Shown: in pieces, positions 2,993 to 36,306 of the stretch
How positions within the stretch are numbered: the stretch's first letter is position 1
Layout: each line of letters begins with the position of its first letter
DNA from: Actinomycetes bacterium
GTDB taxonomy: Bacteria > Actinomycetota > Actinomycetes > S36-B12 > UBA5976
DNA: 61,360 bases
Reading direction: 5' to 3'
Assembly (NCBI GenBank): GCA_021814565.1
Contig: JAKAIC010000001.1
Span: 1 to 61,360, forward strand
Notes under the pieces: model-generated
Databases searched by the model: none
Seen by the model: only the letters and a program-made list of their open reading frames with translations
Told to the model about the DNA's origin: nothing
Program-made: the position numbers and the translations under genes

Positions 2993-3135
2993 GCAACTCC
3001 GAATCCACTACTTTCGTAAGGACCCCTCTGGCGTGGAAATGACAGGCTGATCTGGCTCCGGCAGGACGGCTCGAAGTGGCCCCACTGATCTGCGGTTTCT
3101 GTTTGAGCGCGACGGCTTGATTTGGCCCCACCTGC

Positions 3136-4752
3136 GTGTTCGCATGTTCGTCTGCGGCGAGCTGGGGACAGGCGATGGGACGCAACCGGGTGGAACTGTT
3201 CGACAAGATCCGTACCGATCACGCGACGGGTGAGTACTCGATCCGCGCGTTGGCTGACCTGCATGGCGTGCATCGGCGCACGGTGCGGCAGGCGTTGGAG
3301 TCGTCGATTCCACCACCGCGAAAGACGCCGCAGCGTGCGGCACCCAAGTTGGGGCCGGTGGCCTCGATCGTCGATCAGTGGCTGCGTGATGACCTCACTG
3401 CTCCGCGTAAACAGCGGCATACCGCGCGCCGGATCTGGGAACGGCTCATCGATGAACACGGGTTGGAGGGGCTGTCGTATTCGACGGTCCGTGACCATGT
3501 CGCTAAGCGCCGCCAGGTGATCGCTGCCGAGGCCGGTGCCAGTGCTGAGGTGTTCATCGTGCAGCAGCATCTGCCCGGTGCTGAGGGCGAGGTGGATTTC
3601 GCTGAGCTCTACGCATACATCAACAACATCAAGGAGAAGCTGCACCTGTTCACGTTGCGCTTGTCGTGCTCGGGCAGGGCGGTGCATGTCGCGTTTCGCA
3701 CTGAAGCGTTGGAAGCATTCTGCGAAGGCCACGTGATCGCCTTTGAACGTCTTGGCGGCATGCCGGAACGGATCCGGTACGACAACCTGAAAGTGGCTGT
3801 CAGCAACGTCCTGATGGGTCGCGAGCGGCGTGAAGCAGACCGTTGGATCATGTTCCGCTCCCACTATGGATTCGACGCGTTCTATTGCCGTCCCGGCGTG
3901 GAAGGGGCGCATGAGAAGGGCGGCGTGGAAGGTGAAGGCGGACGATTCCGTCGCCGGCACTGCGTGCCCATCCCGCACGCAGCATCGTTGGAGGAACTCA
4001 ACGCCATGTTCGCTGCCGCAGACGCAGCAGATGATGCCCGCCGCATCGGGCAGCGTCCCCAAACCGTGGGCCAAATGTTTGCCCTCGAAGCACCCGCGTT
4101 GCGGCCTCTTCCCACCGAACGCTTCGAGACGGGCATCGAGGTGATGACGACAGTGGATCGGCACGCCCGGGTCACGGTCCGCCAAATCCACTACTCCGTG
4201 CCCGCGAAGTTGATCGGCCGCCGCCTGCGGGTGATCGCTCGTGCCAGTGAAATCCTCGTCTTCGACGGCCGGCACGTGGTTGCCCGTCATGAACGTTCCA
4301 CCGCGCGCGGCAGCCAACACCTGCAACTCGACCACTACCTGGAAGTCCTCGCCCGCAAACCCGGTGCCCTGCCCGGTTCGCTGGCGTTGGAACAAGCCCG
4401 CAAGGAAGGGCTGTTCACGGCCACGCATGAAGCGTGGTGGGCTGCAGCACGCGCCGCCCGCGGCGACAGTGACGGCACCCGCGCCTTGATCGATGTGTTG
4501 CTGCTGCACCGGCATCTGCCATCGCACGCAGTGCTTGCTGGCATCCGTGCCGCGCTCACTGTCGGCGCCCACGACCCCGACGTGGTGAGCCTTGAAGCAC
4601 GCCGTGCCGCACGCGGCGAGATGCCAAACGATGAGACAGCGCCTCATGCTTCAGCGGTCGCCCATCTTCCCGTCGATGTTCGCCCGCTGCCCGACACAGC
4701 CCGCTATGACGAACTCCTGACCCACCATCCGAGACGAAAGGTCACCACGTGA
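3136..4752 (+). CDS. istA: IS21-family transposase IstA (N-terminal HTH plus DDE domain)
   Basis: 538-aa ORF. N-terminal HTH (YSIRALADLHGVHRRTVRQAL). Typical size and a 4-nt overlap with istB. True start may be the MGRNRVELF Met at 3175. Confidence 0.8.
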   Translation: MFACSSAASWGQAMGRNRVELFDKIRTDHATGEYSIRALADLHGVHRRTVRQALESSIPPPRKTPQRAAPKLGPVASIVDQWLRDDLTAPRKQRHTARRIWERLIDEHGLEGLSYSTVRDHVAKRRQVIAAEAGASAEVFIVQQHLPGAEGEVDFAELYAYINNIKEKLHLFTLRLSCSGRAVHVAFRTEALEAFCEGHVIAFERLGGMPERIRYDNLKVAVSNVLMGRERREADRWIMFRSHYGFDAFYCRPGVEGAHEKGGVEGEGGRFRRRHCVPIPHAASLEELNAMFAAADAADDARRIGQRPQTVGQMFALEAPALRPLPTERFETGIEVMTTVDRHARVTVRQIHYSVPAKLIGRRLRVIARASEILVFDGRHVVARHERSTARGSQHLQLDHYLEVLARKPGALPGSLALEQARKEGLFTATHEAWWAAARAARGDSDGTRALIDVLLLHRHLPSHAVLAGIRAALTVGAHDPDVVSLEARRAARGEMPNDETAPHASAVAHLPVDVRPLPDTARYDELLTHHPRRKVTT

Positions 4753-5525
4753 GCCGAACAACCAACAGCGCAGATAGTGCCGCCATGACCGTCATCGACC
4801 GCAGCAGCCGCGCCTTGCGGCTGCCCACCATCCGCACCCGTGCCAGCGAAGTGATCGCTGCCGCGACCCGTGAACAGTGGTCCCACGCCCAGTTCCTGGC
4901 CGAGATCCTGGCCAGCGAATGCGACGACCGAGACCTGCGGGCACGAGCACGTCGCGTCGCCGCCGCGGGCTTCCCACGCGCCAAAACATTGGCCGAGTTC
5001 GACACCGACGCCAACCCCCACGTCGAACCCGCACTGCTCGGCACGCTCGCCACTGCCGCTTGGGTGCAAGCCGGGAAACCGTTATGTCTCATTGGTGATT
5101 CCGGCACCGGCAAAAGCCACCTCCTCATCGCCCTCGGCACCGCCGCCGCCGAAGCCGGCCACCGAGTCCGTTACGTGCTCGCCTCACGCCTGGTCAACGA
5201 ACTCGCCGAAGCCGAAAACGAGCGACAACTCACCAGGCTCATCAACCGGTACGGCCGCGTCGATCTGCTCTGCATAGACGAGCTCGGCTACCTGCAACTC
5301 GATCGCCGCGGCGCGGAACTGCTGTTCCAGGTCATGACCGAACGCGAAGAACGAGCCGCCCTCGCCGTGGCCTCCAACGAGCCATTCAGCAACTGGGGCA
5401 ACACCTTCACCGACCCGCGGCTGTGTTCCGCGATCATCGACCGCATCACCTTCAACGGCACCATCATCGAAACCGGCACCACGTCCTACAGGCTCACATC
5501 AACCCGCGCCAACCGCAGCCACTAA
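4749..5525 (+). CDS. istB: IS21-family helper ATPase IstB
   Basis: 258 aa. Walker A GDSGTGKSH and Walker B-like LLCIDELGY. Start overlaps the istA stop. Confidence 0.85.
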   Translation: MSRTTNSADSAAMTVIDRSSRALRLPTIRTRASEVIAAATREQWSHAQFLAEILASECDDRDLRARARRVAAAGFPRAKTLAEFDTDANPHVEPALLGTLATAAWVQAGKPLCLIGDSGTGKSHLLIALGTAAAEAGHRVRYVLASRLVNELAEAENERQLTRLINRYGRVDLLCIDELGYLQLDRRGAELLFQVMTEREERAALAVASNEPFSNWGNTFTDPRLCSAIIDRITFNGTIIETGTTSYRLTSTRANRSH

Positions 5526-5685
5526 CCGACCAGGTGGGGCCACTTCGCGGCGTCCCCGCGGGGCCAAGTCAGATTGACATTTTCACTGGCGGGAGGATCC
5601 TCAAAATGGCCCGTTCAGAGGCGTCTTCGGTGTCCTGTTCGGTCTCAGTCCGGACTTCCCCCATCTCGAAGCTAGTTTTGCCCCC

Positions 5686-6288
5686 ATGGCCGATGTTGAG
5701 TCAGCAGGGTTCTCAATCACACCCGGTGGCAAGGCACCTGCTGCTGCGATCTTGGTGCCCGGTGCACGCTATGACATGGCCGCCCCGTTGTTCGCGAAGC
5801 TCATTGAGGGCCTGAGCGCCGAAGGCCTGGGTTGGGTCGCCATCTCCTGGACCGATTCCGTGCACGGACATGACCTGTCGACCATGTGCCAGCTCGTGGA
5901 CCGTGCCGTCCGAGCCGTTGAGGCACTCGCATCCCAGGACGCCACGATCGTCGCGAAGTCCTTGGGCACGCTCGCTGTTGCGACAGCAGAAGCCCTGCAT
6001 CGGCCGGGAGTGTGGTGGACGCCGATCGTCGGATCGGCAGCCGATCGGGGCGGCTATGGCGCGTACGTCCGTGAGCGTCTGGTCAGGAGGAGCCGCGCCG
6101 ACCTCGTCTTCGGTGGCTCTGCCGACGCGTTGTGGGATCGAACGGCCATTCCCTCGCAGCACCAGACCGTGGAGTTCCCGGGCGCCGATCACGGCCTGGA
6201 GATCGATGGCGACCCAGCGGCAACGGCAGCAATCCACGAAGCGGTCTCTTCTCAGACCCTCGAGTTCATTCGCGGGCACACGCGGTGA
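5686..6288 (+). CDS. Small alpha/beta-hydrolase-like protein
   Basis: 200 aa. Candidate nucleophile elbow-like IVAKSLGT and C-terminal FPGADHGL. Stop overlaps the next start (GTGA). Confidence 0.45.
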   Translation: MADVESAGFSITPGGKAPAAAILVPGARYDMAAPLFAKLIEGLSAEGLGWVAISWTDSVHGHDLSTMCQLVDRAVRAVEALASQDATIVAKSLGTLAVATAEALHRPGVWWTPIVGSAADRGGYGAYVRERLVRRSRADLVFGGSADALWDRTAIPSQHQTVEFPGADHGLEIDGDPAATAAIHEAVSSQTLEFIRGHTR

Positions 6289-7220
6289 GCGTCTCCGACG
6301 CGCCCGACCTCGCGCTGCCTCATGCCGTCCTGGATGCCATCACTCACCACACGGGCGAGGTTGTGCGTGTGACCGCCGCCGAGGCCGGTTTCACGCCGGG
6401 CGTGAAGTATCTGGCGGAGACTGCCGACGGCGGCTTCTACTTCGTCAAGAGTGCACCTTCGGATACCTGGGTGGCCCACGACTACGAGACGGAGGCGCGC
6501 GCTCACCTGTGGCTGCCAGTCACGGCGACCCGGTCGCTGCTGCTGGCCCACCTGACTGTCGGCGACCACCAGACCCTCATCTTCCGCGGGCTGCGAGATC
6601 GCAACCCCGGAGCCAGCGTGTGGGCCGACGAGACCGAGGTTGCTGATGCCCTTCGGGGTCTTGCACGGACCTACTCGGGTATCGACGCGGCAGCACCGGC
6701 TGACCTGCCGAGCAGCGTCACCGATTTCTGGCCCGGGCTGACGTTCTGGCGCGACTGCGCCGCCGGCTTGGCCGTTGCGCCCGAGGGAATCTCGCCGACG
6801 ACTGTGGCGCTGTTCGCCGACCTTGAAGGCCACTGCGTCGCGGTCCTGTCCCGGCCAGAGTGGGCGAGTGAGGTATCGCACGAAGACCTGCGCAGGGATC
6901 AGTTCCTCATCGAAGATGATGGCACGGCAACCGTTATCGACTGGTCCTTTGTGACCCGCACTCCACGGATCGTCGACGCGGTATCCCTTGGAGTCGGAGT
7001 CTGCGTCGCTGGCCTTGATGCCGAGATGGTGCTCGACCCAGCGGGGCCGTTCGACGGCTACGACGCCGATGACATCGACGCGGTTCTGGCTGCACTGGCC
7101 GGGTACTTCTTTCGTGCGACGCTCGTGACGGACGGGAAGCCCGAACGGCTATGCGCCGCGCAACTCGCGCAGGGTCAGGCGTGCGCCATGTGGCTCGGTC
7201 AGCGACGCGCATCGAACTGA
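6285..7220 (+). CDS. Aminoglycoside-phosphotransferase-like (APH/choline kinase fold) protein
   Basis: Brenner-like motif HEDLRRDQFLI followed by VIDWSF. GTG start at 6285 chosen because it overlaps the upstream stop. The tracked ORF start at 6132 would overlap the hydrolase gene. Confidence 0.6.
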   Translation: MSVSDAPDLALPHAVLDAITHHTGEVVRVTAAEAGFTPGVKYLAETADGGFYFVKSAPSDTWVAHDYETEARAHLWLPVTATRSLLLAHLTVGDHQTLIFRGLRDRNPGASVWADETEVADALRGLARTYSGIDAAAPADLPSSVTDFWPGLTFWRDCAAGLAVAPEGISPTTVALFADLEGHCVAVLSRPEWASEVSHEDLRRDQFLIEDDGTATVIDWSFVTRTPRIVDAVSLGVGVCVAGLDAEMVLDPAGPFDGYDADDIDAVLAALAGYFFRATLVTDGKPERLCAAQLAQGQACAMWLGQRRASN

Positions 7221-7490
7221 AGCGCACTCGTGGAAGCAGGAAGCCGGTGCCCCTGCGAGGTGCCGTGAAGCACGCGCGATCCATCGGACATTCAAGCGAG
7301 AGCGTCGCCATCACAAGTTGGCGGCGACGCCATTGCCGCACTGGCAACATGCCGGGAGGGGGAAGCGGTACAGGTTCTGCCGGGTTGAGCAGAAGGACGG
7401 CCCGATGGCCCGCGCAAGAGTCGGTCAACTTGAACTGTGGGTTCACAAGATGTCTCGCAGACATCCGATCGTGGCAGGTGCCCCACCGTG

Positions 7491-8270
7491 TCAGCGGGCC
7501 GTGCCCGTGACTCCGAGCCAGTCCAATGCCGCATCCAGCGAGGGCACCTGCGGCCACTGCCCGTCGCCGTTCACGTGGAGGCGATTGAGCCATACGGCTG
7601 GTAGTCCGGCGGCGGTGGCTCCTGCCACATCGCTGCTGACGACGTCACCAATGTAGGCCGTGACAGTCGGGAGCGTGTCCAGCGCTCGGCACAGAGCCTC
7701 GAACGCACGTGTATCGGGCTTCCCGGCCGGAAGGTCGCTCGATGCCACCACGACATCGACCGCGTCGTACAGACCGATGGCACGCAACTTTGCCTCCTGC
7801 TGTTCGCGCTGGCCGTTGGTGAGCACGCCGATGCGCAGATCGGCACCGCGGAGGGCATCGAGGAATCGGGCGGCGTCGGGGTACGCGGTCCAGGAGGTCT
7901 CGTAGTGGCGCAGGTAGCGCGAGAAGAGCTCGTCCAGGTCGTGTGCCTGCGGATGCTCACCTACGGCGATGAGCGTGTCGTGCACACGTCGTCGACGCTG
8001 CTCCTGGAACGTGATGGCGCCGGTCGTGAAATGGGGGAAGTGCGTGCGCTCAGCTTCCGCCCATGCGGCAGCGGTGACACTCGCGGGCCAGCCGCACTCC
8101 TCGGCCCAACTGCGTGCTGCCGTGTCTGCTGATGCCGCGTGGTCCATCAGCGTTCCGTCCAGGTCCACGCCGACACCTACGAGGTGGGTGGTTCGGACGG
8201 CACTCCGTGTCGGATTCGCGGTCACAGGCTCCATCCTCTCGTCTCGCACAGTGAACAGGCCCGCCAACAC
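7491..8270 (-). CDS. HAD-superfamily hydrolase (subfamily IA-like)
   Basis: Motif I VDLDGTLMD, motif II VLTNG, motif IV YIGDVVSSD. Start uncertain (alternative Met at 8234). Confidence 0.7.
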   Translation of the reverse strand: MLAGLFTVRDERMEPVTANPTRSAVRTTHLVGVGVDLDGTLMDHAASADTAARSWAEECGWPASVTAAAWAEAERTHFPHFTTGAITFQEQRRRRVHDTLIAVGEHPQAHDLDELFSRYLRHYETSWTAYPDAARFLDALRGADLRIGVLTNGQREQQEAKLRAIGLYDAVDVVVASSDLPAGKPDTRAFEALCRALDTLPTVTAYIGDVVSSDVAGATAAGLPAVWLNRLHVNGDGQWPQVPSLDAALDWLGVTGTAR

Positions 8271-8516
8271 GATCGGCCCGCATCGCCCGACCCCGCAGTT
8301 GGACTTCCACCTGAGTGGGGCCGGATCCGTACCGGGTCGGGCCGTGCAGCATCATCGGTCTGGTGGTGTCACGGGACGTACGTCTGCTGACCTGGACGGC
8401 CGATCGGCCATCGGCAAGTGGCAGGTGCGGCCCGTCTGGCCACCTTCGCGCCTCCTAGCGCGCCGCGCGGAACGGCGGACGTTCCCGCGAGGTGCCCGTG
8501 AGGTTCGTGGGCCACA

Positions 8517-9248
8517 ATGAGTGCGAAGGCCGCCCCGCCCCGAGGGTGGCCTTCGTCATTCGCGTGGGTCGTCGAGGCGAGCCGCCGCTCGACGTTTGAT
8601 CGGGGGATCCCGGAGACTTATCCGAGGCAATTCCTTGGCTCGGAGGCCCGAATGGATGTGCGCATGGGGGACGTCCCCACGTGGATCGCAATGTGTGGGG
8701 CGATTGTCGCGGCGTGGCGAGCGAACTCGATCGCAAGGATCGAGGAACAGCGTGACAAGGATTCGGCAAGGCGCGATCGCGAGAGGCAGGCGGTGCAGGT
8801 GTCCGCTTGGGTCGAGGGTTCGACAATGCAGGGCAGCTACGGCCTTGAAGCAACCTGTGTCGTGTGCGTATGCAATCGTTCCGATCAGCCTGTCTATGCG
8901 GTGGACATCACGGTGAAGGACTCAGTGGGCACGTCTCAGCGACATCAGTTGGCCGTGCTCCCGCCGCGCGTGACCGAGCGCTTCCTCATCTCCGAACAGT
9001 TGAGGAACAACGCGATCCTCCACGTCGACATACCTCGCGGGCAGCAGAGGAATGCTTCGTTTGCCCAGGACGATGCAAGGCGCCTAGCTCAGGACCTGCG
9101 CGTTGAGGTGTCGTTCCGCGACGTCAGCAACAACACATGGCGCCGTGGGCTGGACGGGGCGCTTGTCGAAGCGCCTGAGACAACCGCCGCGCGGCCGCGG
9201 CGGTTCTGGTTCACGCGCGCCTGGGGAGCCGGACGCACCGGCTCGTGA
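8517..9248 (+). CDS. Hypothetical protein with one N-terminal TM helix
   Basis: ORF only. A likely shorter start is at MDVRMGDVPTWIAMCGAIVAAW (about nt 8652). No recognisable motif. Confidence 0.35.
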   Translation: MSAKAAPPRGWPSSFAWVVEASRRSTFDRGIPETYPRQFLGSEARMDVRMGDVPTWIAMCGAIVAAWRANSIARIEEQRDKDSARRDRERQAVQVSAWVEGSTMQGSYGLEATCVVCVCNRSDQPVYAVDITVKDSVGTSQRHQLAVLPPRVTERFLISEQLRNNAILHVDIPRGQQRNASFAQDDARRLAQDLRVEVSFRDVSNNTWRRGLDGALVEAPETTAARPRRFWFTRAWGAGRTGS

Positions 9249-9550
9249 CGGAACCTGTGCTTTCTGTGAGGTTCCTACCTGCTCTGCGAGGGGCGCGTCT
9301 GCCAGGCTCGCCGCGAAGGCTGCTGCATCCCCCAGGAGCGGCCTTCGCGGCTTCCCAGAGCACTGACTAGCCGAGAGGTGTTCCTGTCCACAGGTGCACC
9401 GGCCGCGTCATTCGACGACGACACCACGTCCCTGTCGACCGCCGTACGCCGGCTCGCAAGGTAGACAGCGAGGCTTGGCGCAGCGACCGTGCCGAGGCTC
9501 TCGCTTCGCACGGGATCATCTGCAAGGCTGGATCTGGCGGAAGGGATCGC

Positions 9551-11566
9551 TTGTGGGCTACGGGGGTGCAAGTGACGAAGAGGGTTGACGAACAACTACT
9601 GATTGGCCTCGCCATCCTGCAGGTGAACTGGGATGCGAAGGGGAGGAGTCATCTCGACAACTTCGTACCATTTGCTGTTGAGGCGTTGCGCACAAGCGGA
9701 TCGAGTGAGTTCACCTACGCGGAGGTTCGACAGGCGATCCTTGACACGTCGGGATTGAATCTGCCGGTTCAGGTCGTCGGCGCAGTTCTCAAGCGCGCTG
9801 AACTCGCCCGCTTCGGGACTCGTGCGTCGCATGGAACGTTCCGTCTGAATTCGGAAAAGGCGAGTCGGGTCTCATTGGAGGCGCAACGACAGCGCCTGCT
9901 ACGTGAACAGCGCAATCTCGAGGAATCGCTCGCACAGCACGCTAGCAGCGCCTTCGGTGCCGCGTGGTCCTTGGAAGTCGCCAACGCCGCCTTGCTTGCA
10001 TATGTCGATGGCAATGCAGCAGCGCTCCTTGGAACCGCGCTGCGGGGTGACAATGCACCGCGCGGTGAGGTTGACTCGGAGGAACGCGTCATCGTCGCGA
10101 GCTGGATTGAAGGGATCTCACATTCCGATCCCGATCGATTCGAGTACCTGCTGAACATCGTGAAAGGCAGCATGCTTGCTACGGGTCTCCTGTTGCCCCA
10201 TAGCAGCGAGATGGATCGGCCATTCAAGGCAACGACGCTCATTCTCGATACTCCCGTGTTGCTCGGAGCTTTGGGTCACGAGGGCGAAGAGACGCGAGCC
10301 TCAATCGAAGAGATCCTCGCTCTCGCTCGTCGACAAGGGGCGAAGCTCGCCTGTCTCCAGGGAACTTTGGTAGAGGTCCGCTCCGTCCTAACAGCAGCGT
10401 CGATGTCAATCGGTCGCGCCCACTCTCCGTCTACCAAGCCGGTGGACTTGCACTTCGCGCGAACAGGACAGTCGAGAGCCCAAGTCCTAGCCAAGGCTGA
10501 ACGGCTTGATGCGGACCTGAACCGCATTCAGATTGAAGTGCGGGCGAATCCACACTTCGCTGAGTTCGACACCGTGGACGAAGCCGTTCTTGAGCAACTG
10601 CTAGAACGCGCAGTGCACCATGGCCCGGAGCGAAGAGAAGCGCTGTTGCACGACTTGAATGCACTTACGTCCGTTCATAGATTGCGCAGGAACCGAGACG
10701 GCGATCGGCTTGAGAACTGCGGTGCTGTCTTCATCAGTCCGAACACTGGTGTCGTTGCCATTGCTAACGCATTCGAGGGATTCAAGACGCACCGGTGGCC
10801 GATCGCGATGTCTCTGGACTCGCTTGCCACGATGCTCTGGGTCAAGACTCCACTAGCTGCCCCGGATCTGCCTAGGTATCGCCTATTGGCCAACTGCTAC
10901 AGCGCTCTCGAACCTGAACCGGAGCTGTGGGCCCAGTTCTTGCGAGAAATCGACCGGCTGCGATCTGACGACTCGATCACGGATGACGATGTGACTTTCC
11001 TCAGGTACTCGCAAGAGGTCCGACGCGAACTCGCCCAAGGCGCCGTTGCGAAGCGATCTGGCGCTTCGCATGACCTTGTTATCGATGTACTGGCACGAGT
11101 GCAAGGCAAGCTCAGTGAACCAGCCGAAGGTCAACGCGTTGCCGCCGAACAGAAGTTGAGGGAGGTAGAGGCCGTTCATGAGGCTCTAGCGGTGCGGGCC
11201 CAATCGACCGAAACGGATCTCGAGAAGATCACTAGAGAACTCGCGGAGGAGCGCCAGCGTAGGGAGCGTCGGGACAAGCACTCAGAGAGCGTGCTCACCG
11301 ATGTCGCTGGACAAGCAGAACGAGTGGGCAAGTGGGCGGGTTGGGGAATCACGGTCCTCATCGGTGCCAGTTACTTCTGGGCAACAAGGCATACCAGTTG
11401 GCTTGCCCATCTCATAACCTCACTAGCCGTGACTGTCGCGCTGCTTGTCGGGAACCTCCAGGCTCCGGGCAAGGCCGTCGAGCGGTTCATTGCGGACTGG
11501 TTCAAGCGGGTCCGCATCGCACTCCTCAAATTGCCTACCGAGGAAGCGCTGGACACCAGGTTGTAG
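9551..11566 (+). CDS. Large hypothetical protein: N-terminal wHTH-like region, central PIN-like acidic motifs, coiled coil, two C-terminal TM helices
   Basis: 671 aa. TLILDTPVLLGALG, LHDLNALT and VFISPNTG resemble PIN-like Asp motifs. Heptad-rich LREVEAVHEALAVRAQSTETDLEKITRELAEERQRRERRDK. Hydrophobic WAGWGITVLIGASYFW and LITSLAVTVALLVGNL. Confidence 0.5.
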   Translation: MWATGVQVTKRVDEQLLIGLAILQVNWDAKGRSHLDNFVPFAVEALRTSGSSEFTYAEVRQAILDTSGLNLPVQVVGAVLKRAELARFGTRASHGTFRLNSEKASRVSLEAQRQRLLREQRNLEESLAQHASSAFGAAWSLEVANAALLAYVDGNAAALLGTALRGDNAPRGEVDSEERVIVASWIEGISHSDPDRFEYLLNIVKGSMLATGLLLPHSSEMDRPFKATTLILDTPVLLGALGHEGEETRASIEEILALARRQGAKLACLQGTLVEVRSVLTAASMSIGRAHSPSTKPVDLHFARTGQSRAQVLAKAERLDADLNRIQIEVRANPHFAEFDTVDEAVLEQLLERAVHHGPERREALLHDLNALTSVHRLRRNRDGDRLENCGAVFISPNTGVVAIANAFEGFKTHRWPIAMSLDSLATMLWVKTPLAAPDLPRYRLLANCYSALEPEPELWAQFLREIDRLRSDDSITDDDVTFLRYSQEVRRELAQGAVAKRSGASHDLVIDVLARVQGKLSEPAEGQRVAAEQKLREVEAVHEALAVRAQSTETDLEKITRELAEERQRRERRDKHSESVLTDVAGQAERVGKWAGWGITVLIGASYFWATRHTSWLAHLITSLAVTVALLVGNLQAPGKAVERFIADWFKRVRIALLKLPTEEALDTRL

Positions 11567-11684
11567 GGCGTAGAGCCGATTGTCCACAGTGAGATTGAAG
11601 CGTGCCGTTCCGAGTCGCAGCCCGATGGCCGTCCCTAGGGCGGTGACACTGGAACAGGCACGCTGGTGATTGCGCGGGTGACAG

Positions 11685-13451
11685 GTGGCCGGACGCTGGT
11701 CCGGCATGACCACACATACACATACTGGGAATCAGGACCTGCCGGGGACCACGGAGGCCGCTTCGGTGGTCGCTGCTGCGGCTGCCTTGTTGACGAACTT
11801 GCATCAACAGCGCGCGAGTACGGCCCGCGGCAGGCTCATGGAGTTCCTCCGGGATACGACGTCCTCGGGCTGGGATGGGGAGACTCGCCCTGATCTTGTT
11901 GCCCTCCTGACGGAGGCCGCGATCGAGCGCCATGTGCGCGCGCGTGCTGCCGCCGGCGAGGGCAACCGGGGGCTGTCGGATCGGCGTACCGATCTGCGGA
12001 ACATCCGCAGGGCGCTCATCGCTGACCCGAATGACATCCGACGCAAGCCTGCGAAGAGTCACGGCACTCCGGCCGGTAGCGACATGCTGCTGGCGGGGCT
12101 GCTCGCCGGTGCGAATGGCGTCGAAGTACACGCACTAGTCACTGCGCTTCGCGAGCAGGGCCACGTCACCGCGCAGCACATGCGCACGCTGCTGTCGACT
12201 CGACTGCTGCGGCAGCTTCCTGTGAATGCGGTGGTGAGCCAGGTCGGCACTCCTTCGGCGGAGGGGTGCCGTCTCATGAGGGCAATGGCAACCGCCAACG
12301 CCGCGGCATCCGGGAGCGTGATGCGGTCCATGCCACGAACCTCAACCACGGCAGTAACGAAGTCGCGTCGCAAGAGCAACCGCGAGGTCATGCGCGAAGC
12401 AGCCGACAAGGCGAAGGCGGTGACGGTCGAGAAGACGTTGCACGACCTCGCCGCCACAACATGGCCGCAATTGCGTAGCATGCCTACGGCGACGCGCACC
12501 GCAATGATGAAATACCGGCCGCAGGGCGTTCCCGACACCGAATGGATCCTGCTGCGGCCTGCGTTCCTTCGGCTCATGTCGCTGCTGCAGCAGGAGTCCC
12601 CACGCGTTGCACGCAACACGGCCTCGCTGCTCGTGCGATACCTGCGGTGGCGGCTGTCGAACCGGACTCCCGCGGGTGCCCAACCGTTGGCAATGGCGGA
12701 GGTGGGTGTCCGGGAGGACGTCAACACCTGGTTGGCCGTCATGCGTTCTCGAGGGACGCCACCTGCGACCCTCGCGACGATGCGATCGGAGGTTCCCTAT
12801 GTCATCGATGCCCTCCACCCCGATTTGGCACCCGTGCGGCTGCCCTACACCCCGGCGCCGGCGCCCTACAGCGATCGCGAGGTGGCAACGTTCCTCGCGA
12901 TTGCGCGATATCAGCCGACCGAACGCAGTCAGCAGGAGACGACGGCGCTGATCGCGCTCTGTGCTGGTGCCGGCCTCACCCCTGGTGAGGTCACGTCCGT
13001 CACCCCCGCGGACCTTCAGCCGCTGGAAATGGGCGACGGCTTCCGCACCTACCTGGTTCGTGCTGGACGTGGGAGGCAGGAGCGTGTGGTTCCCCTGCGG
13101 TTGGCCTTCGTCGCTCCTCTGGAGGATGCGCTGCGCATTCACAAGGAGCGCAGGCAGGGCACGCGCCCTCTTGTACCGAAGCTGGCTGCGCCGGGTACCC
13201 ACGGCATCGTGGCCAGAGTCGAACTCAGCGATGAGGTGGGACTCGATCTTCAGGCCTACCGGTTGCGCAACACGTGGCTGGTGGCCCAGATGCAGGCATC
13301 GGTTCCGCTGGCCGATCTGCTCCGTGCCGCAGGTCTCGTGAGCGCGCGCCCCCTGACTGACCTGCTGCCACATTGCGCGCCAGCAGAGCCAGCACGCATC
13401 CAGCACCTGCTCGCCGCTGCGACGGTCGTGAAGGCCGGTGAGCACGCATGA
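11685..13451 (+). CDS. Module copy 2, gene A: integrase-fold protein that appears catalytically degenerate
   Basis: 588 aa. C-terminus parallels copies 1 and 3 (YSDREVATFLAIARYQPT, LCAGAGLTPGEV, YRLRNTWLVAQM, LLRAAGL). ATGA overlap with gene B. Start may be the Met at 11706 (MTTHTHT). Confidence 0.65.
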   Translation: MAGRWSGMTTHTHTGNQDLPGTTEAASVVAAAAALLTNLHQQRASTARGRLMEFLRDTTSSGWDGETRPDLVALLTEAAIERHVRARAAAGEGNRGLSDRRTDLRNIRRALIADPNDIRRKPAKSHGTPAGSDMLLAGLLAGANGVEVHALVTALREQGHVTAQHMRTLLSTRLLRQLPVNAVVSQVGTPSAEGCRLMRAMATANAAASGSVMRSMPRTSTTAVTKSRRKSNREVMREAADKAKAVTVEKTLHDLAATTWPQLRSMPTATRTAMMKYRPQGVPDTEWILLRPAFLRLMSLLQQESPRVARNTASLLVRYLRWRLSNRTPAGAQPLAMAEVGVREDVNTWLAVMRSRGTPPATLATMRSEVPYVIDALHPDLAPVRLPYTPAPAPYSDREVATFLAIARYQPTERSQQETTALIALCAGAGLTPGEVTSVTPADLQPLEMGDGFRTYLVRAGRGRQERVVPLRLAFVAPLEDALRIHKERRQGTRPLVPKLAAPGTHGIVARVELSDEVGLDLQAYRLRNTWLVAQMQASVPLADLLRAAGLVSARPLTDLLPHCAPAEPARIQHLLAAATVVKAGEHA

Positions 13452-15346: not shown

Positions 15347-15365
15347 CAGTTGACCTGCAATGCGC

Positions 15366-15393
15366 TGAGGGCCGCCCCGATGGGGCGGCCTCA
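15366..15393 (+). terminator. GC-rich hairpin downstream of B2
   Basis: GGCCGCCCC / GGGGCGGCC 9-bp stem with a 3-nt loop, 20 nt after the stop. No clear U tract. Confidence 0.45.
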
Positions 15394-15926
15394 GCCACAT
15401 TCTGACCGTGCAGGTTCACACGTTCATTTTGAGGATCCTCAGCTCAGAATGGACTTCCATTCTGAGGATCCCCCTGGCAAGTTGTTGACCAAACTCCGGT
15501 TCCCTCACGATTCAGGCCCATTTCTGGGCCTCACGAAGAGGCTTGCACACGAAAACACGATTTTTTGCACACAGGCGCACGAATTCATCCGCTGCGACTT
15601 CCCGGTCCCGCCCCGCAAGCCGATGGCGCTGGCGCGCTCGTGGGATCAGCATTCCCAGCAATCCTCGAACGGAGCCCTCTGACATACGCACTCGCAGGAC
15701 CCGTCTGGATCTGAAAATGTGACGTTCCCATCAGTATCCGCGCCAGCTTCGGCCCAAGTGACGTCAAGGATTGCCCGATGCTCCGGCCCCCATCGACGGA
15801 CCGACGCGTTGGCCGCACCGTACGGCCACTTCGGATTGCACACAGCCTGGTTGCTTCACAGCAATTCGCGCGCACAGTTCGGTATCGGACTCAATGCTGT
15901 GCGGCTACGCTGCGGAGGTGCTCGCC

Positions 15927-22020: not shown

Positions 22021-22021
22021 T

Positions 22022-23494: not shown

Positions 23495-23496
23495 TC

Positions 23497-28165: not shown

Positions 28166-28170
28166 ATCAA

Positions 28171-28227: not shown

Positions 28228-28239
28228 GGATCTCGCACG

Positions 28240-29777: not shown

Positions 29778-30055
29778 ATCGACCGTGGTCGAGGCGTCAC
29801 GCCGATCGCCGCGGAAAACGGCTTCAGGCATGAATCCCACGGGCTCGGACCATTCCTGGCGGAGATGACTTCGACCCTCTTCGCGACCGACTCTTCGAGC
29901 GGCCACAGATTCTGATTGTGATGGAGCGCCTTGCAACCGCTCCCGCGATGTTGAGGAGCAGAGTCCGAGAATCTGAGTAGCAGTCACTCGTCGGCCACGC
30001 GGCCGCGACTCTCGGAACACCAATCGATTTCGACTAGCTGCGAAGCAGACGGCTT

Positions 30056-30481: not shown

Positions 30482-30761
30482 GCGAATCCCCCATTGAGTA
30501 TGACGGCAGGTTAGGCGCACCGCGGTACTTAGTCGAGCACCGCCAACAGCAGCCAAAAGAAGACCTGCAGCATGCCACCAAATATCACTCCGAACAGCGG
30601 CGCACCGCCTGGATCCGCCTGCCAATCGGCTCGTCCGAGTATTGCGTACAGAATGAAGAACACCGTGTAGCCGACTGAGATCACCAAGCCACGGCGTCCG
30701 CGGCGATCTGGATATTCGAAGATGGGGTGGGACTGACCCGAGTTCGGTTGACTCCTAACAT

Positions 30762-31079
30762 GTGGGGCTGCGGCCCTGCTGGAAGGAGCCCAAGATGCCG
30801 AGGGCGTATCCGCAAGAGTTCAAGGACGATGTCGTTCGGATCGTGCTTTCCGGCGAGGTAACGATGGCGCAGGCGGCACGCGATTTCGGAGTGTCCGAGA
30901 CGTGCGTGTCGAACTGGGTTCGCAAGGCCCAGGTCGAAGCCGGGCAGCGGCCTGGCGTGACGGCCAAGGAGTCGACGGAGCTGAAGGAGGCGCGCAAGCG
31001 GATCCGGATCCTGGAGCAGGAAAACGAGATCCTGCGGAGGGCGGCGATCTATCTGGGTCGGGGAACGCTCCCAAAATGA
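30762..31079 (+). CDS. IS3-family OrfA (HTH plus leucine zipper)
   Basis: MPRAYPQEFKDDVVRIV...AARDFGVSETCVSNWVRK...ELKEARKRIRILEQENEILRRA. Confidence 0.85.
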   Translation: MGLRPCWKEPKMPRAYPQEFKDDVVRIVLSGEVTMAQAARDFGVSETCVSNWVRKAQVEAGQRPGVTAKESTELKEARKRIRILEQENEILRRAAIYLGRGTLPK

Positions 31080-31942
31080 TCTACCCCTTGGTGACGGAGC
31101 TGGCTGCCAAGGGGATCCCGATCGCCCGGTCGTGCAAGGTGTTGGGCTTCTCCAAGCAGGCGTTCTATGCGTGGAAGGCGGCGCCGGTGAGTCAGCGCGA
31201 TTGGGATGACGCGCACCTCATCAACGCCGCCCGCGATGTCCATGCCGACGATCCGACGTTCGGTTACCGGTTCATCCATGACGAACTCGAACTCACCCAC
31301 GGGCACTCGGTGGGACGTAACCGCATCCACCGGTTGTGTCGGCAGGAAGGTCTCGGCTCGGTCATCGTCAAGGGCCGCGGCAAGGGCAAGCGTCCAGGCC
31401 CTGCCGTGCATGACGATCTCGTGCAACGCCAGTTCGGTGCCGAACGCATCGACCGGCTTTGGTACGTCGACATCAGCGAGCACCCGACCTTCGAGGGCAA
31501 GCTGTATCTGTGCGCCATCAAGGACGCAGCATCCGCGCGGATCGTGGGCTATTCCATGGATTCCCGTATGACTGCCGATCTCGCCTGCAATGCGCTGCGT
31601 CACGCGATCCTGCGACGGCGACCCATCGGCACCATCGTCCACTCGGACCGTGGCAGCCAGTTCGGTGCCAAGAAGTTCCGCACCATCCTCACCGAACACG
31701 GGCTTCGCGGCTCCATGGGACGTGTCGGTGCGGCAGGCGACAACGCGGCCATGGAATCGTTCTTCGCGCTGCTGCAAAAGAACGTCCTCAACCGCCGCCA
31801 ATGGCAGACCCGAGACCAATTGCGGATGGCGATCTGCACCTGGATCGAACGCGACTACCACCGTCGCCGCCGGCAGGCTGGCCTGGGACGACTCACCCCC
31901 GTCGAATACGAGACAATCACCACCGCAGCATTAGCTGCCTAG
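31076..31942 (+). CDS. IS3-family OrfB (DDE integrase core), probably made as an OrfAB fusion
   Basis: WYVDISEH (D), HSDRGSQF (D), DNAAMESFF (E). The frame is open from 30902. Slippery C CCA AAA at 31070..31076. Confidence 0.85.
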   Translation: MIYPLVTELAAKGIPIARSCKVLGFSKQAFYAWKAAPVSQRDWDDAHLINAARDVHADDPTFGYRFIHDELELTHGHSVGRNRIHRLCRQEGLGSVIVKGRGKGKRPGPAVHDDLVQRQFGAERIDRLWYVDISEHPTFEGKLYLCAIKDAASARIVGYSMDSRMTADLACNALRHAILRRRPIGTIVHSDRGSQFGAKKFRTILTEHGLRGSMGRVGAAGDNAAMESFFALLQKNVLNRRQWQTRDQLRMAICTWIERDYHRRRRQAGLGRLTPVEYETITTAALAA

Positions 31943-32412
31943 CCACGAAGAACCCGAGTCAACGAAACTCGGGCCAGTCCCGGTTGTACCTCCGATTGAA
32001 TCGACGCCACCACACTGAGTCTGCGATTTTCGAATCATTGATGCGCATGCCGGTACCCACGTCCTCACCTTCCGCAGTAGATACCTGCCGGAGGGTCCGG
32101 CACTCTCAGGAATCGTCAAGCAGCTCGCGCTCGACGATGCTGGGCCGGCAAGCGCTAGCGGTGTGATGGACCAGAACGTCTCTCAGTGACCGTTTCGCTC
32201 GCGTAGGGCGAACTAGATACTTGGCGATCTGGCACAACTTGGCAGCGCAAGCTCTACCGAAGCAATCACACTGACATGGGCCTGCCACTCGGGCGCTGGG
32301 TCGCACCGCCAATGCATTGCGCAGCACTCGCACGGGCCGGCGCTGCGTTCGGACCGGCAGGTGAAGCCCGTGACCGATTGAACGAGAGTCGTAGGGACCG
32401 GCCCGCTGGCGA

Positions 32413-34194
32413 TTGCGCTATCGCCGTTATGCCGGACCAGTCCCCGGCATGGTGACACCCACACACACAGAGATCACGGTCCGTGTACGCCGCTTCACGC
32501 CCAGCCGCCTGGATGCTCCCGCGTGGGCTGCTGCCCGCGATGCGGCGGTTGAGGCGGTGCTCGCTGCGAACCCGCCGACGCTGCTGGAAGCCGACTACTA
32601 CTGCACGCACTTGACGTTGTTTCTGGCGAGTCTCTCGACTGGGGTATGGGACCGGGTCAGTGAACCTGACATAGCGCAGCTGCTGACTTCGACGGCAATC
32701 GACGTGTTCACCTCCGAGACAGGCATGCCTGGCAAGTCCAAGTACACGCGGAAGACGGCGCGCACGAGGCTTCGCCAGTTGCAGCGGGCCGCGCTCGATC
32801 GAACGAAGGCACCGAGCCGCCCGCGGGCGACGTCGAGGAAGGCTTCCCGGTTCTGGATGCGGGTGACGGGTCTGGCGCCATTCACGGCACTGGCGGAGGC
32901 ATACCGCACGGCCGGTGGCTCTCTGCACATCACTTCGTGGATGGAGATTGCCGAATCGTTGACCACGGATTTGCGCACGATGTCCCCTGCGGCGAATGCG
33001 ACGACGCCCCCGGTGGGCACGCTCCGCGGTGTCCAAATGGGTGCCGAGGCGCTTCGTGAGGTCAAGGCCCCGCAGGGGGTGAGGCTGATGGCAACGCAAC
33101 CGACATCATCGACAACTGTAGCCAAGCCAATGTCGCGAGCCGCGGCACTCCGAATGGCTCGGGCAGCGCAAACGGCCGTGGCTGCACCACTGATCACACC
33201 CGTGCCGGCACTGGCTACCGAGCTGCAAACCATGGTGGATGGCTGGCGCCCGCAAGGCGTGTCCGAGCAGGTGTGGGCGCCGGTGGAGGCAGCCGCAGCG
33301 ACCGCGATGGCGGCGTATGCGCCGACATCGCAGTCCTCGCTCATGAACATCCGTTCCGTGATCGCGGACTATTGCCTATGGGTGCACGACCACCAGACAC
33401 ACGCTGCGGGAGCAGACCTGACGCTCGAGGCGCTGGTCGCGGCAGGTGTCCTCGAGGCGTACTTCGCCGGACCACTCACCGTGCGTCCGGATGCGACGCA
33501 GGCCACGGCACGCAGTGTGCTGCGCCGAGTAGTGCGGAAACTCGCCCCGCAGACCGCGCCGACACCGATCAGCTATCAGCCGGTGCAACCCCCATACAGT
33601 GACGCTGAATGCGCATCGTTCGTGCTCCTGGCACGCAATCAGCCGACTGCACACATGCGCCGCGAACTGTCCGCCATGATCGCGCTCGGCCTAGGTGCCG
33701 GGTTGGCGGCGGAGGACTCGCGGCTGATTGCACCGTGGCATGTGCGGGAACTCGACCTCGGTGACAGCGCGCCCGCGCTGGCGGTGCTGGTGCCTGGTGA
33801 GGCACCGCGTGGCCGCCTCGTGGTGGTGCGCCGTGAGTATGAGCCGCTGCTGCGGGAAGTACTCGCCCTACACAAGCAGGCACGCCGCAGCTCCAGCACC
33901 CCGCTGTATGGGGTGAACCCGAAGCGTCGTAACGGTGCGAACCGGGTCACGGAGAAGGCGGTCACCGCCACCGGTCAAGGCGTCGACGTGAGTGCCGCAC
34001 GTTTGCGCACCACGTGGCTGGTGGCGTGCATGTCGTCACCGGTGCCGTTCGGTGCCCTGCTCCACGCCTCCGGCCTGCGGACTCCGCGTACCTTGACCGA
34101 TCTGCTGCCGTTCTGTCCCGCACCCGATCCGCTGGCGGTTGCGTTGGCGCTGCAGGTCGCGGGCGGAGCCTCGAATGCGCAGGTTGCATCATGA
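32413..34194 (+). CDS. Module copy 3, gene A: integrase-fold protein that appears catalytically degenerate
   Basis: 593-aa ORF. Likely start is the Met at 32449 (MVTPTHTEI). C-terminal half nearly collinear with copy 1. Confidence 0.7.
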   Translation: MRYRRYAGPVPGMVTPTHTEITVRVRRFTPSRLDAPAWAAARDAAVEAVLAANPPTLLEADYYCTHLTLFLASLSTGVWDRVSEPDIAQLLTSTAIDVFTSETGMPGKSKYTRKTARTRLRQLQRAALDRTKAPSRPRATSRKASRFWMRVTGLAPFTALAEAYRTAGGSLHITSWMEIAESLTTDLRTMSPAANATTPPVGTLRGVQMGAEALREVKAPQGVRLMATQPTSSTTVAKPMSRAAALRMARAAQTAVAAPLITPVPALATELQTMVDGWRPQGVSEQVWAPVEAAAATAMAAYAPTSQSSLMNIRSVIADYCLWVHDHQTHAAGADLTLEALVAAGVLEAYFAGPLTVRPDATQATARSVLRRVVRKLAPQTAPTPISYQPVQPPYSDAECASFVLLARNQPTAHMRRELSAMIALGLGAGLAAEDSRLIAPWHVRELDLGDSAPALAVLVPGEAPRGRLVVVRREYEPLLREVLALHKQARRSSSTPLYGVNPKRRNGANRVTEKAVTATGQGVDVSAARLRTTWLVACMSSPVPFGALLHASGLRTPRTLTDLLPFCPAPDPLAVALALQVAGGASNAQVAS

Positions 34195-35972
34195 GGCGCA
34201 GCGAGTTCGGCCGCATCCTCGATCGCGTCCAAGCCGGTGGCGTCACGACGTATGTGGAAGGACTACTGCGTCCCGAGGGCAAGGGTGGGCGTCCGCGCCA
34301 GTTGACCGTTGCCGTGTTCTTGACGGCCGTCATTTGCGCGGTCGATGAGAAGGAAGGCAAGTTGTCGCTGACGAACGTGCACGACTTGCTCATCAACGGT
34401 CTTGCACGCTCATACCGCATCGTGCTGGGCATCACCTGGACGGATGATGCCGGCAATGATTGCTCAGTCACACAACGGCAGGTCCGCTACTTGCTGGAGG
34501 CGATCGAGCTCAAGCTCGCGCACACGCAGGGTCGTGCAGCGGACCTGACCGACGAAGACCGAGTCACCCGTGCCGCCGCCCTGCAGAACGTGCTGGACCT
34601 GCTCGTGCAGTCGAGCTTGCCCTCGCACCTTGCCGCTCCCGGCATCTACGCCTTGGATGGAACGGGTCTGGCGTCTTGGGGTAAGGGCCGCAAGCGCACC
34701 CCTGTCGACCCGAATGCGGACCACGCTGAAGACGATGACTTGACCATCAACGATGACAATGCCGAAACCGCACTGCACAAGCGGCTTGATCCGGACGCGC
34801 AGTGGGGTTATCAGACGAAGACGTATGACAACAAGACGAACTACTGCTTCGGCTACCACGCGTTCGCCATGGTCGGTCTAGACCCGGTCGGAGTTGACCC
34901 GGATATTCGACCCAAGCTCATTGAAGGCATCGCGTTGCGGCCGGCCAACGCCAACGCCATCGACCCGGCACTCACGCTCATCGACTCACTGATCGCTGCG
35001 GGACGTCCCGTCAACGAGTTGCTGTCGGACCGTGAGTTCTCCTACAAGTCTGAAGAATCGTGGGCCGGTCCGCTGCTCGATCGCAAGGTCGCACAGGTCA
35101 TGGACATCCACAGCAAAGGCCGTGGCGTCCGTGACTTCAACGGTGTCGCGATGATCGATGGCACCCCGCACTGCCGCGCCGTACTCGGTGACCGCGACGA
35201 CCTCATCATCATTGCGCGACCAGCGAACCTGTCGGCCGGCACGTTGAAGGCCAACGCCACCGATGAGGAACGCGAGGAGCACGCCACACGTGTGCGGGAA
35301 CTGGCCGAGTTCCGTGCCAAGATCGCGCAGCGGGAAGTCGCTGCGTTCCGACGTGTCTCCAGCGCGGACGAGAATGGCGACGAGCGTTGGGAATGCCCCG
35401 CCCAGGCCGGCAAAGTGATCTGCGCCAACTGCCCACTGTCCTTGGGCTACCCCAAGGACCGCCCCGTCGTTGCCGAACCGCACCAAGTGCCCGCGCTGCC
35501 ACCGCGCCCCACGCCGCCGGCAAAGCGCACCAAGCATGCCGTCGAGCAGCACCGGCAGGCACTCAAGGCGTACGAGAAGCAGGCTGATGTCTTGCGCTGC
35601 TGCCGTCAACGCACCATCACGATTCCCGGCAATGTCACACCCAAGCAGCGGCAACGCCTGTACTGGGGTTCGGATGCCTGGATCGAATCCTTCGCGCGCC
35701 GCACCCATGTCGAAGGCGTCTTCGGCAACATGAAGAGCACGAAGGGCGCGAACCTCAAGCGCGGCTGGATCTACGTCGTCGGCATCGTCAAGACGAGCAT
35801 CATGCTCGCCTGCGTCGCCTTCGCCACGAACTTGCGCCTGCTGCGCTCTTGGTCCGAACGCACCGGCGATGTGACCGACCCACTGTGCCAACCGCTACCA
35901 CCGTCGTTGGGCTTCGAAGAACTCGACGCCGACGGCAACCCCGACCTGGCCGTCGCGCCACCAGAGCAGTAA
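34191..35972 (+). CDS. Module copy 3, gene B: IS4-like DDE transposase
   Basis: Start placed at the ATGA overlap (MRRSEFGRILDRVQAGG), by analogy with copies 1 and 2. YALDGTGLASWGK, LLSDREFSYKSE, FARRTHVEGVFGNMK, RWECPAQAGKVICANCP. Confidence 0.75.
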   Translation: MRRSEFGRILDRVQAGGVTTYVEGLLRPEGKGGRPRQLTVAVFLTAVICAVDEKEGKLSLTNVHDLLINGLARSYRIVLGITWTDDAGNDCSVTQRQVRYLLEAIELKLAHTQGRAADLTDEDRVTRAAALQNVLDLLVQSSLPSHLAAPGIYALDGTGLASWGKGRKRTPVDPNADHAEDDDLTINDDNAETALHKRLDPDAQWGYQTKTYDNKTNYCFGYHAFAMVGLDPVGVDPDIRPKLIEGIALRPANANAIDPALTLIDSLIAAGRPVNELLSDREFSYKSEESWAGPLLDRKVAQVMDIHSKGRGVRDFNGVAMIDGTPHCRAVLGDRDDLIIIARPANLSAGTLKANATDEEREEHATRVRELAEFRAKIAQREVAAFRRVSSADENGDERWECPAQAGKVICANCPLSLGYPKDRPVVAEPHQVPALPPRPTPPAKRTKHAVEQHRQALKAYEKQADVLRCCRQRTITIPGNVTPKQRQRLYWGSDAWIESFARRTHVEGVFGNMKSTKGANLKRGWIYVVGIVKTSIMLACVAFATNLRLLRSWSERTGDVTDPLCQPLPPSLGFEELDADGNPDLAVAPPEQ

Positions 35973-36135
35973 CTGGACAAACCCAAGCAAGTACAACTGA
36001 ACGCAACCGTTCGCCCGCAGCCACAAGGCTCGCGGGCTTAGCGGCGTTCAACCCAACGCCGCGTCGATAGCGGATACATGTGGCATCGGAACTGCCAGGG
36101 CAGCACAATCCGTGAAATGACGGCCCGCAAAGCAC

Positions 36136-36181
36136 GAAACTCCCCGCGAGAACCCCTCAGGGGCTCCCATCGGGGAGTTTC
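36136..36181. repeat. Second copy of the GAAACTCCCCG...CGGGGAGTTTC hairpin; likely also the terminator of tRNA-Ser(CGA) on the minus strand
   Basis: Near-identical to 2947..2992. Lies 36 nt beyond the tRNA 3' end. Confidence 0.65.
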
Positions 36182-36216
36182 GTAAGCAGTTGCTCCCTAG
36201 TTTCGGAAACAACCCC

Positions 36217-36306
36217 TGGCGGTGACGGTGGGATTTGAACCCACGGTGAGCTTTCACCCACACACGCTTTCGAGGCGTGCTCCTTAGGCCACTCGGACAC
36301 ATCACC
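36217..36306 (-). tRNA. tRNA-Ser (anticodon CGA), CCA encoded
   Basis: Reverse complement folds as acceptor GGTGATG/CGTCACC, anticodon stem CACGC/GCGTG with loop CTCGAAA, a long variable arm, and T-arm GTGGG-TTCAAAT-CCCAC. Confidence 0.9.

Follow-up and report, generated by a model that had tools for sequence, protein, structure and literature searches.

Putative cargo-carrying transposons with a two-gene A-B module, stacked at the 3′ end of a tRNA-Ser gene in an actinomycete

Tn7 inserts in one orientation just downstream of a conserved gene, which it leaves undamaged, duplicates 5 bp of its target, bears multiple transposase-binding repeats in asymmetric ends and relies on a separate DNA-binding protein to pick the target; Tn7-like elements also carry large, defence-rich cargo (mBio 2021, PMC8649781). 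We describe here a family of putative transposons that resemble Tn7 in these respects, with the target-picking role presumably falling to one of their own proteins. They were found in a stretch of 61,360 nucleotides from an Actinomycetes bacterium (assembly GCA_021814565.1, contig JAKAIC010000001.1, positions 1 to 61,360; this whole stretch is called the window below), in which three elements, I, II and III, lie ahead of a tRNA-Ser(CGA) gene. Each encodes two proteins, A and B, in adjacent genes. We put the chance at roughly three in four that the A-B pairs serve to transpose DNA elements that carry cargo and are site- and orientation-specific, B acting as the transposase and A as its non-catalytic partner.

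The likeness to Tn7 does not extend to the proteins. A and B lack the TnsA, rve-type TnsB, AAA+ TnsC and TniQ domains, and the smallest elements hold no other conserved gene; the machinery appears to consist of two proteins, a DDE protein of the IS4/IS1182 superfamily and one with a tyrosine-recombinase fold, and insertion takes place right at the CCA end of a tRNA-Ser gene. With the IS1182, IS5 and IS4 insertion sequences the elements have in common short inverted repeats, short duplications and, in B, a D-D-E triad with a C-terminal region of the R-x3-E-x6-K type (PF13751; NCBIfam IS1182, positions 403-485). Unlike those transposases, B has ~600 aa with large insertions, is always accompanied by A and scores far under the family cut-offs, and the elements themselves measure 6-21 kb, carry cargo and insert with strict site specificity. 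Prophages, genomic islands and integrative elements of actinomycetes that reside at tRNA genes and use tyrosine integrases likewise target the tRNA 3′ end, regenerate the tRNA, accrete in tandem and place their recombination module next to the tRNA, and A has the fold of an integrase. The A-B elements differ from them in having a 5-bp repeat instead of a 15-60-nt att sequence copied from the tRNA, true terminal inverted repeats, an A protein without Arg-I and often without Tyr, and a DDE protein in every case.

Tn3-family elements such as Tn4430 (TnpI) and Tn4651 (TnpS/TnpT) pair a DDE transposase with a tyrosine recombinase, so that in both groups a cargo transposon encodes a DDE protein next to one of tyrosine-recombinase fold. 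In Tn4430 and Tn4651, however, an active recombinase resolves cointegrates at an internal site, a Tn3-type transposase goes with 38-bp repeats, and insertion is not tRNA-specific. Strict target specificity for multicopy small RNA genes has been described for the eukaryotic Dada DNA transposons, and the text of that paper also mentions a DDE transposase and tRNA-Ser (PMC3706591); Dada elements differ in being eukaryotic and in having an unrelated transposase, no recombinase-fold partner and no cargo. No description of elements such as those reported here was found in the literature searched; in kind they would be site-specific cargo transposons.

The three elements of the window form a head-to-tail array with CTGGC at each junction, and are not free-standing copies; the first-pass annotation of this DNA had correctly recognized the A-B pairs as lying within discrete mobile elements bounded by terminal inverted repeats, with a motif at the termini. 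Element I (1-3027, + strand) is represented by its right part only, the contig beginning inside A(I) (2-1009), which is followed by B(I) (1006-2787) and a right arm (2788-3027) with the terminal repeat CTTTCGTAAGGACCCC (3011-3026). Element II (5591-15473, +; 9.9 kb), of a divergent subfamily, begins with the left repeat GGGAGGATCCTCAAAATGG (5591-5609), encodes A(II) (11685-13451) and B(II) (13448-15346), and bears in its right arm a subterminal (15424-15440) and a terminal (15457-15473) copy of CATTYTGAGGATCC. Element III (15479-36215, +; 20.7 kb) runs from the left repeat AAGTTGTTGACCAAACT (15479-15495) through 16.9 kb of cargo to A(III) (32413-34194) and B(III) (34191-35972), and closes with GTTTCGGAAACAACCC (36200-36215). 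The junction pentamers lie at 3028-3032 between I and II (inside a CTGGCG, 3028-3033, itself duplicated by an IS21-family insertion), at 15474-15478 between II and III, and at 36216-36220 between III and the tRNA. In the last of these, TGGC at 36217-36220 is the encoded CCA together with the discriminator of the tRNA-Ser(CGA) gene, the insertion target, which is left intact; ARAGORN places it at 36217-36306 on the − strand, and the match to the Rfam tRNA model, in which CCA is not included, extends over 36220-36306. The A-B pairs of the window are paralogues of old standing and not recent copies: amino-acid identity ranges from 26 to 68% (I against III, 68% for A and 63% for B; II against I or III, 26-31%), and both genes are intact.

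What is the motif that these ends have in common? The first-pass annotation had proposed a terminal 13-mer, GCCRGRGGGRTCC, from five strings, all of which stand where it placed them: GCCAGAGGGGTCC at R(I) (3020-3032, −), GGCGGGAGGATCC at L(II) (5588-5600, +), GCCAGGGGGATCC at R(II) (15466-15478, −), gccggagggtcc at a proposed L(III) (32087-32098, +) and aacaacccctggc at R(III) (36208-36220). Four of them mark true ends, and the proposed L(III) is misplaced by 16.6 kb. The 13-mer is not a single repeat. Four of its bases (GCCA/TGGC) are the discriminator and CCA of tRNA-Ser, duplicated upon insertion, and the remaining nine are the start of the terminal inverted repeat, whose family consensus is GGGGTSSTNACGAAAC. 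Read inward, right ends consist of GCCA and nine repeat bases and left ends of TGGC and nine repeat bases; since the duplication is a direct and not an inverted one, L(II) shows GGC at the place where the right ends have GCC. The fit is uneven, with R(III) matching the 13-mer in its first 8 bases only and the proposed L(III) string matching it only with a deletion.

The family repeat is common to I and III, and the subfamily repeat of II contains GGATCC. The extended motif GAGGATCCTCARAATGG occurs in exactly 3 copies in the window, as had been stated for L(II) and R(II) (5593-5609, +; 15424-15440, −; 15457-15473, −; 0.01 expected), the GGATCC extension being specific to II and not shared across the elements. 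A weight matrix trained only on 22 ends from other genomes and scored at ~123,000 window positions ranks R(I) first (3026, −), R(III) second (36215, −) and 15479 (+) sixth. Left and right inverted repeats agree at 15/17 positions in II, at 14/20 in III and at 14-17/20 in seven elements from other genomes.

B homologues are restricted to Actinomycetota, nearly all of them under the label of hypothetical protein, the only one that public databases give to the A family as well. At 10 of the 14 loci scanned outside this genome, a tRNA-Ser gene stands on the opposite strand ~250-400 bp past B; at the other four the sequence ends no more than ~120 bp from the match or, at L022 alone, 8 kb of downstream sequence holds no tRNA. 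Seven loci fetched later also have a converging tRNA-Ser after B, which brings the tally to 17 loci in other Actinomycetota genomes and metagenomes, with CGA, GGA and GCT isoacceptors among them. The right termini at these loci read GTTTCGTNAGGACCCC, then NTGGC and GG, that is, five bases and then the acceptor stem. The right arms contain a second ACGAAAC ~29 nt further in, and a third, inverted copy that pairs with the second as a hairpin; in the window, hairpins lie in the right arms of I (2946-2958 / 2982-2994, z-score -3.9) and III (36134-36146 / 36171-36183, z-score -4.3). Arm length is ~245 bp in I and III and 127 bp in II.

To locate left ends, each right end was reverse-complemented and compared with the sequence upstream in 20-nt windows with shifts; a 30-nt ungapped comparison of the right ends with all upstream positions was not discriminating. 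They were found in seven genomes (L011, L013, L015, L018, L020, L047 and L048), starting with the family consensus, and a pattern search gave two further left ends in Nocardioides (G093); at L037, L046, L050 and L052 none was recovered within 10 kb. The seven complete elements thus delimited measure 6.1-8.5 kb and are flanked, in the order given, by TGAGC, CTGGC, CCGGC, GCAGC, TTGGC, GTGGC and TTGGC. These repeats track the local tRNA end, and their fifth base, which lies outside the tRNA, agrees in 5/5 non-C cases. In all, a 5-bp repeat co-varying with the host sequence flanks all 9 complete elements. That the repeat follows the host sequence, including the non-tRNA base, is what a target duplication arising from a staggered cut predicts. 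A and B are the sole genes common to the complete elements, the cargo differing entirely, and the placement of the pair is constant throughout, always at one particular element end, with a single orientation and an unchanging distance to the terminus. Tandem junctions also occur at L015 and in Nocardioides G093. Within the upstream 10 kb no tRNA-derived att repeat exceeds 11 nt, the true repeats being 5 bp. Several left flanks resemble decayed right arms. The idea that the left repeat mimics the tRNA acceptor sequence was dropped, L047 being suggestive and L013 not.

Comparison of empty and occupied sites agrees with these termini. The empty site, in a genome of the same genus with no B match (G043), consists of a 17-nt tRNA remnant, a ~100-bp spacer with a terminator hairpin, ATGGC and tRNA-Ser(CGA). 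Contig C146 of the genome to which the window belongs (G000) has the same remnant and spacer, then ATGGC and the left end of an element, and the tRNA gene of the window is preceded by R(III) and CTGGC; C146 up to its TGGC, joined to the window from 36221 onwards, gives the G043 arrangement. The remnant, a copy of the tRNA-Ser 3′ end (TGGCGGTGACGGTGGGA), lies with its ~100-bp spacer at 2298-2411 of L003 on C146 and at 1642-1765 of L032 in G043, and looks like the scar of an older integrase-type element with a T-loop crossover. A degraded fourth copy, IV, on C146 (its B with 2 stops) ends exactly at the TGGC of the remnant. Among further genomes, G041 has a III-like element at the tRNA and G042 retains a 130-bp right arm as the sole remainder. 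In G044, of the same genus (L034, ~1490), the tRNA-Ser(CGA) gene has no encoded CCA (it ends in CGTCACCGCG, followed by gta) and no element adjoins it, which fits a need for an encoded GCCA, as a single case. Four runs from a mine drainage metagenome (X1-X4), compared with window positions 2500-16500, 15380-15620 and 36080-36340, show a heterogeneous population; in X1-X3 an I/IV-type right end, CGTAAGGACCCC, stands directly on a tRNA-Ser differing by 2-3 SNPs.

On four independent lines of comparison, one of them the sixth rank in the weight matrix, the left end of III falls at 15479, right behind R(II) and CTGGC, and not at 32087. The sequence at 15479 aligns in MAFFT with the C146 left end (TGGC, then GGGTTGCTTACGAAACT, TTCCCTCACGA and CTTGCACAC in turn), a homology visible only in that alignment, blastn of the III left arm against the genome giving no match beyond itself. 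In six left ends outside the window (L013, L015, L018, L047, L048 and C146) a TGCACRC-N-TGCACRC pair lies 64-66 nt inside the end, and the only such pair in the window, the paired TGCACAC motif spanning 15544-15572, lies 65 nt in from 15479. A variant contig of run X4 shares the sequence beginning CCTGGCAAGTTGTTGACC only rightwards from 15473, with unrelated sequence before it. The string at 32087 sits in the 430-bp gap between an IS3 element and A(III), is absent from the 12 top-scoring weight-matrix positions listed and has no TGCACRC pair after it. We reject it as an element end; a pattern fitted so as to include it is circular and was not used as evidence. The IS3-family insertion sequence itself (30729-31981, +), whose reading frame at 30902-31942 has rve, HTH_21 and rve_3 domains and whose 26-nt inverted repeats are 88% complementary, lies in III upstream of A(III) and is not A-B machinery. 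With III beginning at 15479, the candidate defence and radical-SAM clusters at 15.9-28.3 kb are its cargo and not chromosomal genes.

Element II, the cargo of which includes an APH-like kinase, represents a divergent subfamily with a repeat of its own. The right ends of two II-type relatives read GGATCCCC (L050) and GGGGAACCTC (L052), each followed by CTGGC and tRNA-Ser(CGA) and each accompanied by a subterminal copy. The cargo of a II-type relative at L050/L051 (3649-5087 and 12015) includes an endonuclease resembling BamHI/BglII together with an N6/N4 methyltransferase, and GGATCC, the BamHI site, is present in the right terminus of this relative and in both termini of element II; this may be a coincidence or a link between cargo and ends. 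A tRNA-Gly(GCC) called by ARAGORN inside B(II) (13908-13996, −) has no Rfam support at the gathering score and is probably a false positive.

B is probably a DDE transposase, distantly IS1182-like. D156, D280 and E508 are invariant among 28 sequences down to 27% identity, and the C-terminus gives a weak match to DDE_Tnp_1_6 (PF13751) and to the IS1182 model; PF13751 is matched by 19/28 homologues and PF01609 by 3/28. The AlphaFold model of B has a pLDDT of 86 and a pTM of 0.84. For A, five proteins gave no Pfam match, nor was there an NCBIfam match, and profile searches of A (30 sequences) and B against PDB sequences returned no meaningful match. The structural model of A (pLDDT 84.5) matches XerH, Cre and Flp over ~300-375 alignment columns with a probability of ~1.0; its top 33 matches are XerH, Cre, Tre and Flp, with a probability of 0.9-1.0 for the first 29 and E-values from 1.6e-3. 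On this model A has the two-domain tyrosine-recombinase fold.

The catalytic set R-K-H-R-H/W-Y of these enzymes is not retained in A, as judged in a register taken from a low-confidence hhalign alignment to E. coli XerD (probability 0.1), which is plausible and not reliable alone. The residue after the invariant G-A-G-L, at the Arg-I position, is D, S or G in 28/30 sequences, Arg not being among the three commonest; the A-R-L-R-x-T-W motif keeps Arg-II without its His, and the His of H-x-x-R is replaced by Ala, Asn or Ser in 28/30. At the Tyr position there are 20 Y, 5 H and 3 F among the 30 sequences, the window copies having F, H and F. A database protein of 756 aa (P0035, ENA) matches both A (72% of query) and B (62%); it may be a fusion of the two or may have arisen artefactually when genes were called across their 4-nt overlap.

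How might such elements move? What the comparisons show directly is where the elements end, the 5-bp duplications and how these follow the local tRNA, the preference for tRNA-Ser in a single orientation, the arrays and the empty site, along with the intact triad of B and the degenerate recombinase of A. An element consists of the left inverted repeat, a TGCACRC pair 65 nt in, variable and often defensive cargo, A and B, followed by a right arm with three ACGAAAC copies (one of them inverted and hairpin-forming) and the right inverted repeat. Insertion has a single orientation and falls precisely on the tRNA-Ser 3′ end, duplicating 5 bp, N + TGGC, composed of one downstream base, the CCA and the discriminator. 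The duplication leaves the tRNA intact and the site reusable, and on this reading repeated use of the site built the array from I through II and III to tRNA-Ser(CGA). B would perform cleavage and strand transfer. A would no longer cut DNA and may instead bind it as a partner of B, recognizing the tRNA-Ser gene and/or the repeated end motifs and setting the site and orientation of insertion, much as TnsD does for Tn7. The more specific suggestion that A is a tyrosine recombinase turned target selector, binding the DNA of the tRNA-Ser acceptor and T-arm and/or the ACGAAAC and TGCACRC repeats and passing the site to an IS1182-like DDE transposase, is a tentative one, which we think somewhat more apt to be wrong than right.

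Several observations weigh against transposition by an A-B module. The case is built throughout on comparative sequence. B falls below the curated cut-off of the IS1182 model NF033551 (22-26 bits against 270), the window copies fall below that of PF13751 (19.9-22.7 bits against 25.1), and the Foldseek matches of the B model, nearly all of them DDE transposases or integrases (P element, Mu, TnsB, retroviral integrases), have E-values of only 0.04-1. A strict 5-bp duplication does not by itself account for the one additional T of R(I), for the leftmost C146 junction, which reads ATGGC against CTGGC at the three window junctions, or for one internal Nocardioides junction, which is AGCGC. C146 is linked to the start of C121, the window contig, by inference and not by assembly. 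Finally, a Tyr occupies the nucleophile position in 20/30 A homologues, which leaves room for A to act in part as a recombinase, and where two ends abut, inverted arms of 16 bp flank a spacer of 5 bp, much as in the core site of a site-specific recombinase.

These last two points lend themselves to another account, in which site-specific recombination moves the elements as integrative islands. A, possibly helped by B, would recombine an attP made of abutted ends (GGACCCC-CTGGC-GGGGTCC) with an attB at the 3′ end of tRNA-Ser, and the 5 bp would be the crossover core. The 3′ ends of tRNA genes are the classic target of tyrosine integrases, A has their two-domain fold with R530, R532, H487 and W535 invariant and the Tyr ~35 residues past R532 where it is kept (20/30), and C146 and G043 carry a tRNA remnant of the kind that integrases leave. 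That remnant, however, is older than the present elements and also occurs in a genome without B. The loss of Arg-I and, in the window, of the Tyr, together with the failure of A to match any Pfam or PDB sequence, speaks against this account, as does the D-D-E triad of B, which is intact, invariant and under selection. The 5-bp repeat, moreover, tracks the host including a base outside the tRNA, which on this account would need a matched attP core for each host. We consider site-specific recombination by A an unlikely explanation of the elements, though the strongest competitor of transposition by B.

Considerably less probable is that A and B are mere passengers, a domesticated or decaying IS-like pair in islands mobilized by some other function or by a host factor. 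Signs of decay exist in the pseudogene of copy IV, in the solitary right arm of G042 and in the left flanks that resemble decayed right arms. A decaying passenger pair would hardly be the only gene content common to all complete elements amid wholly different cargo, nor keep a constant end, orientation and distance to the terminus, and both genes have stayed intact across the 26-68% divergence seen within a single window. As for the remaining possibility, that the 13-mer is a chance match, a generic genomic repeat or a mere repetition of the tRNA end unrelated to A-B, it can practically be set aside: four of the 13 bases are indeed tRNA end, and loosened patterns do behave like noise (at the 2 mismatches needed to admit L(II), 20 window matches against 18.6 expected; for a loose 16-mer consensus, 57 matches genome-wide, barely above 39 for a reversed control), but the exact 13-mer occurs twice, at R(I) and R(II), against 0.04 expected, the extended motif three times against 0.01, the externally trained matrix gives R(I) and R(III) the two highest scores in the window, the same end architecture accompanies A-B at 17 independent loci, and consensus matches preceded by TGGC/GCCA are confined in this genome to A-B element ends. 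An origin as a common genomic repeat, which the first-pass annotation had itself named as fatal to its proposal, is thereby ruled out at four of the five ends and stands only for the string at 32087.

The I/II junction is interrupted by a secondary insertion of the IS21 family (3034-5585, +) that is no part of the A-B elements. It encodes IstA (3136-4752; NCBIfam IS21 transposase, 1.5e-70) and IstB (4749-5525; 5e-74), has inverted repeats of 53 nt (3033-3085 / 5534-5586) and is flanked by the target duplication CTGGCG (3028-3033 / 5586-5591). As a complete IS21 lies between R(I) and L(II), these are the two sides of one junction, which IS21 entered later than the element array formed. An IS21-free contig of run X1 joins 3027 to 5586, with 6 letters shared. 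In runs X1-X4 IS21 is covered 3-5 times as deeply as its flanks, which means that the community contains it in multiple copies.

On its chromosomal side the target adjoins a conserved actinobacterial block with tRNA-Ser(GGA) at 36959-37046 and the SRP RNA at 37127-37221, followed by long open reading frames at 37017-39188, 39185-39781 and 39827-41167 that correspond, by position only, to dnaX, recR and aspartate kinase, as in L046/L047. The II-type relatives and L048 lie beside a tRNA-Ser next to tadA and an Rv3753c-like gene. In five related loci (L037, L046, L048, L050 and L052) the cargo includes type I restriction-modification systems (three loci), SMODS (CBASS), a TIR_2 protein, Schlafen/AlbA_2-HATPase, GmrSD and a YhcG nuclease.

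If the A-B pairs are transposition modules, they would constitute a compact system of two genes able to insert large DNA site-specifically at a universal and harmless place, the CCA end of tRNA-Ser. Their activity would explain how defence islands are assembled and exchanged beside the tRNA-Ser / SRP RNA / dnaX locus in Actinomycetota, the defence cargo here and in the relatives comprising type I restriction-modification, CBASS-type SMODS, TIR, Schlafen-like, GmrSD and BamHI-like functions as well as the clusters of III. In A, the fold of a tyrosine recombinase would have been kept without its chemistry beside a DDE enzyme. Should A prove to be the target selector, the pair would represent an ATPase-free two-protein system, evolved independently of Tn7, that inserts from 6 to >20 kb at a safe harbour and serves as a vehicle for defence islands in Actinomycetota.

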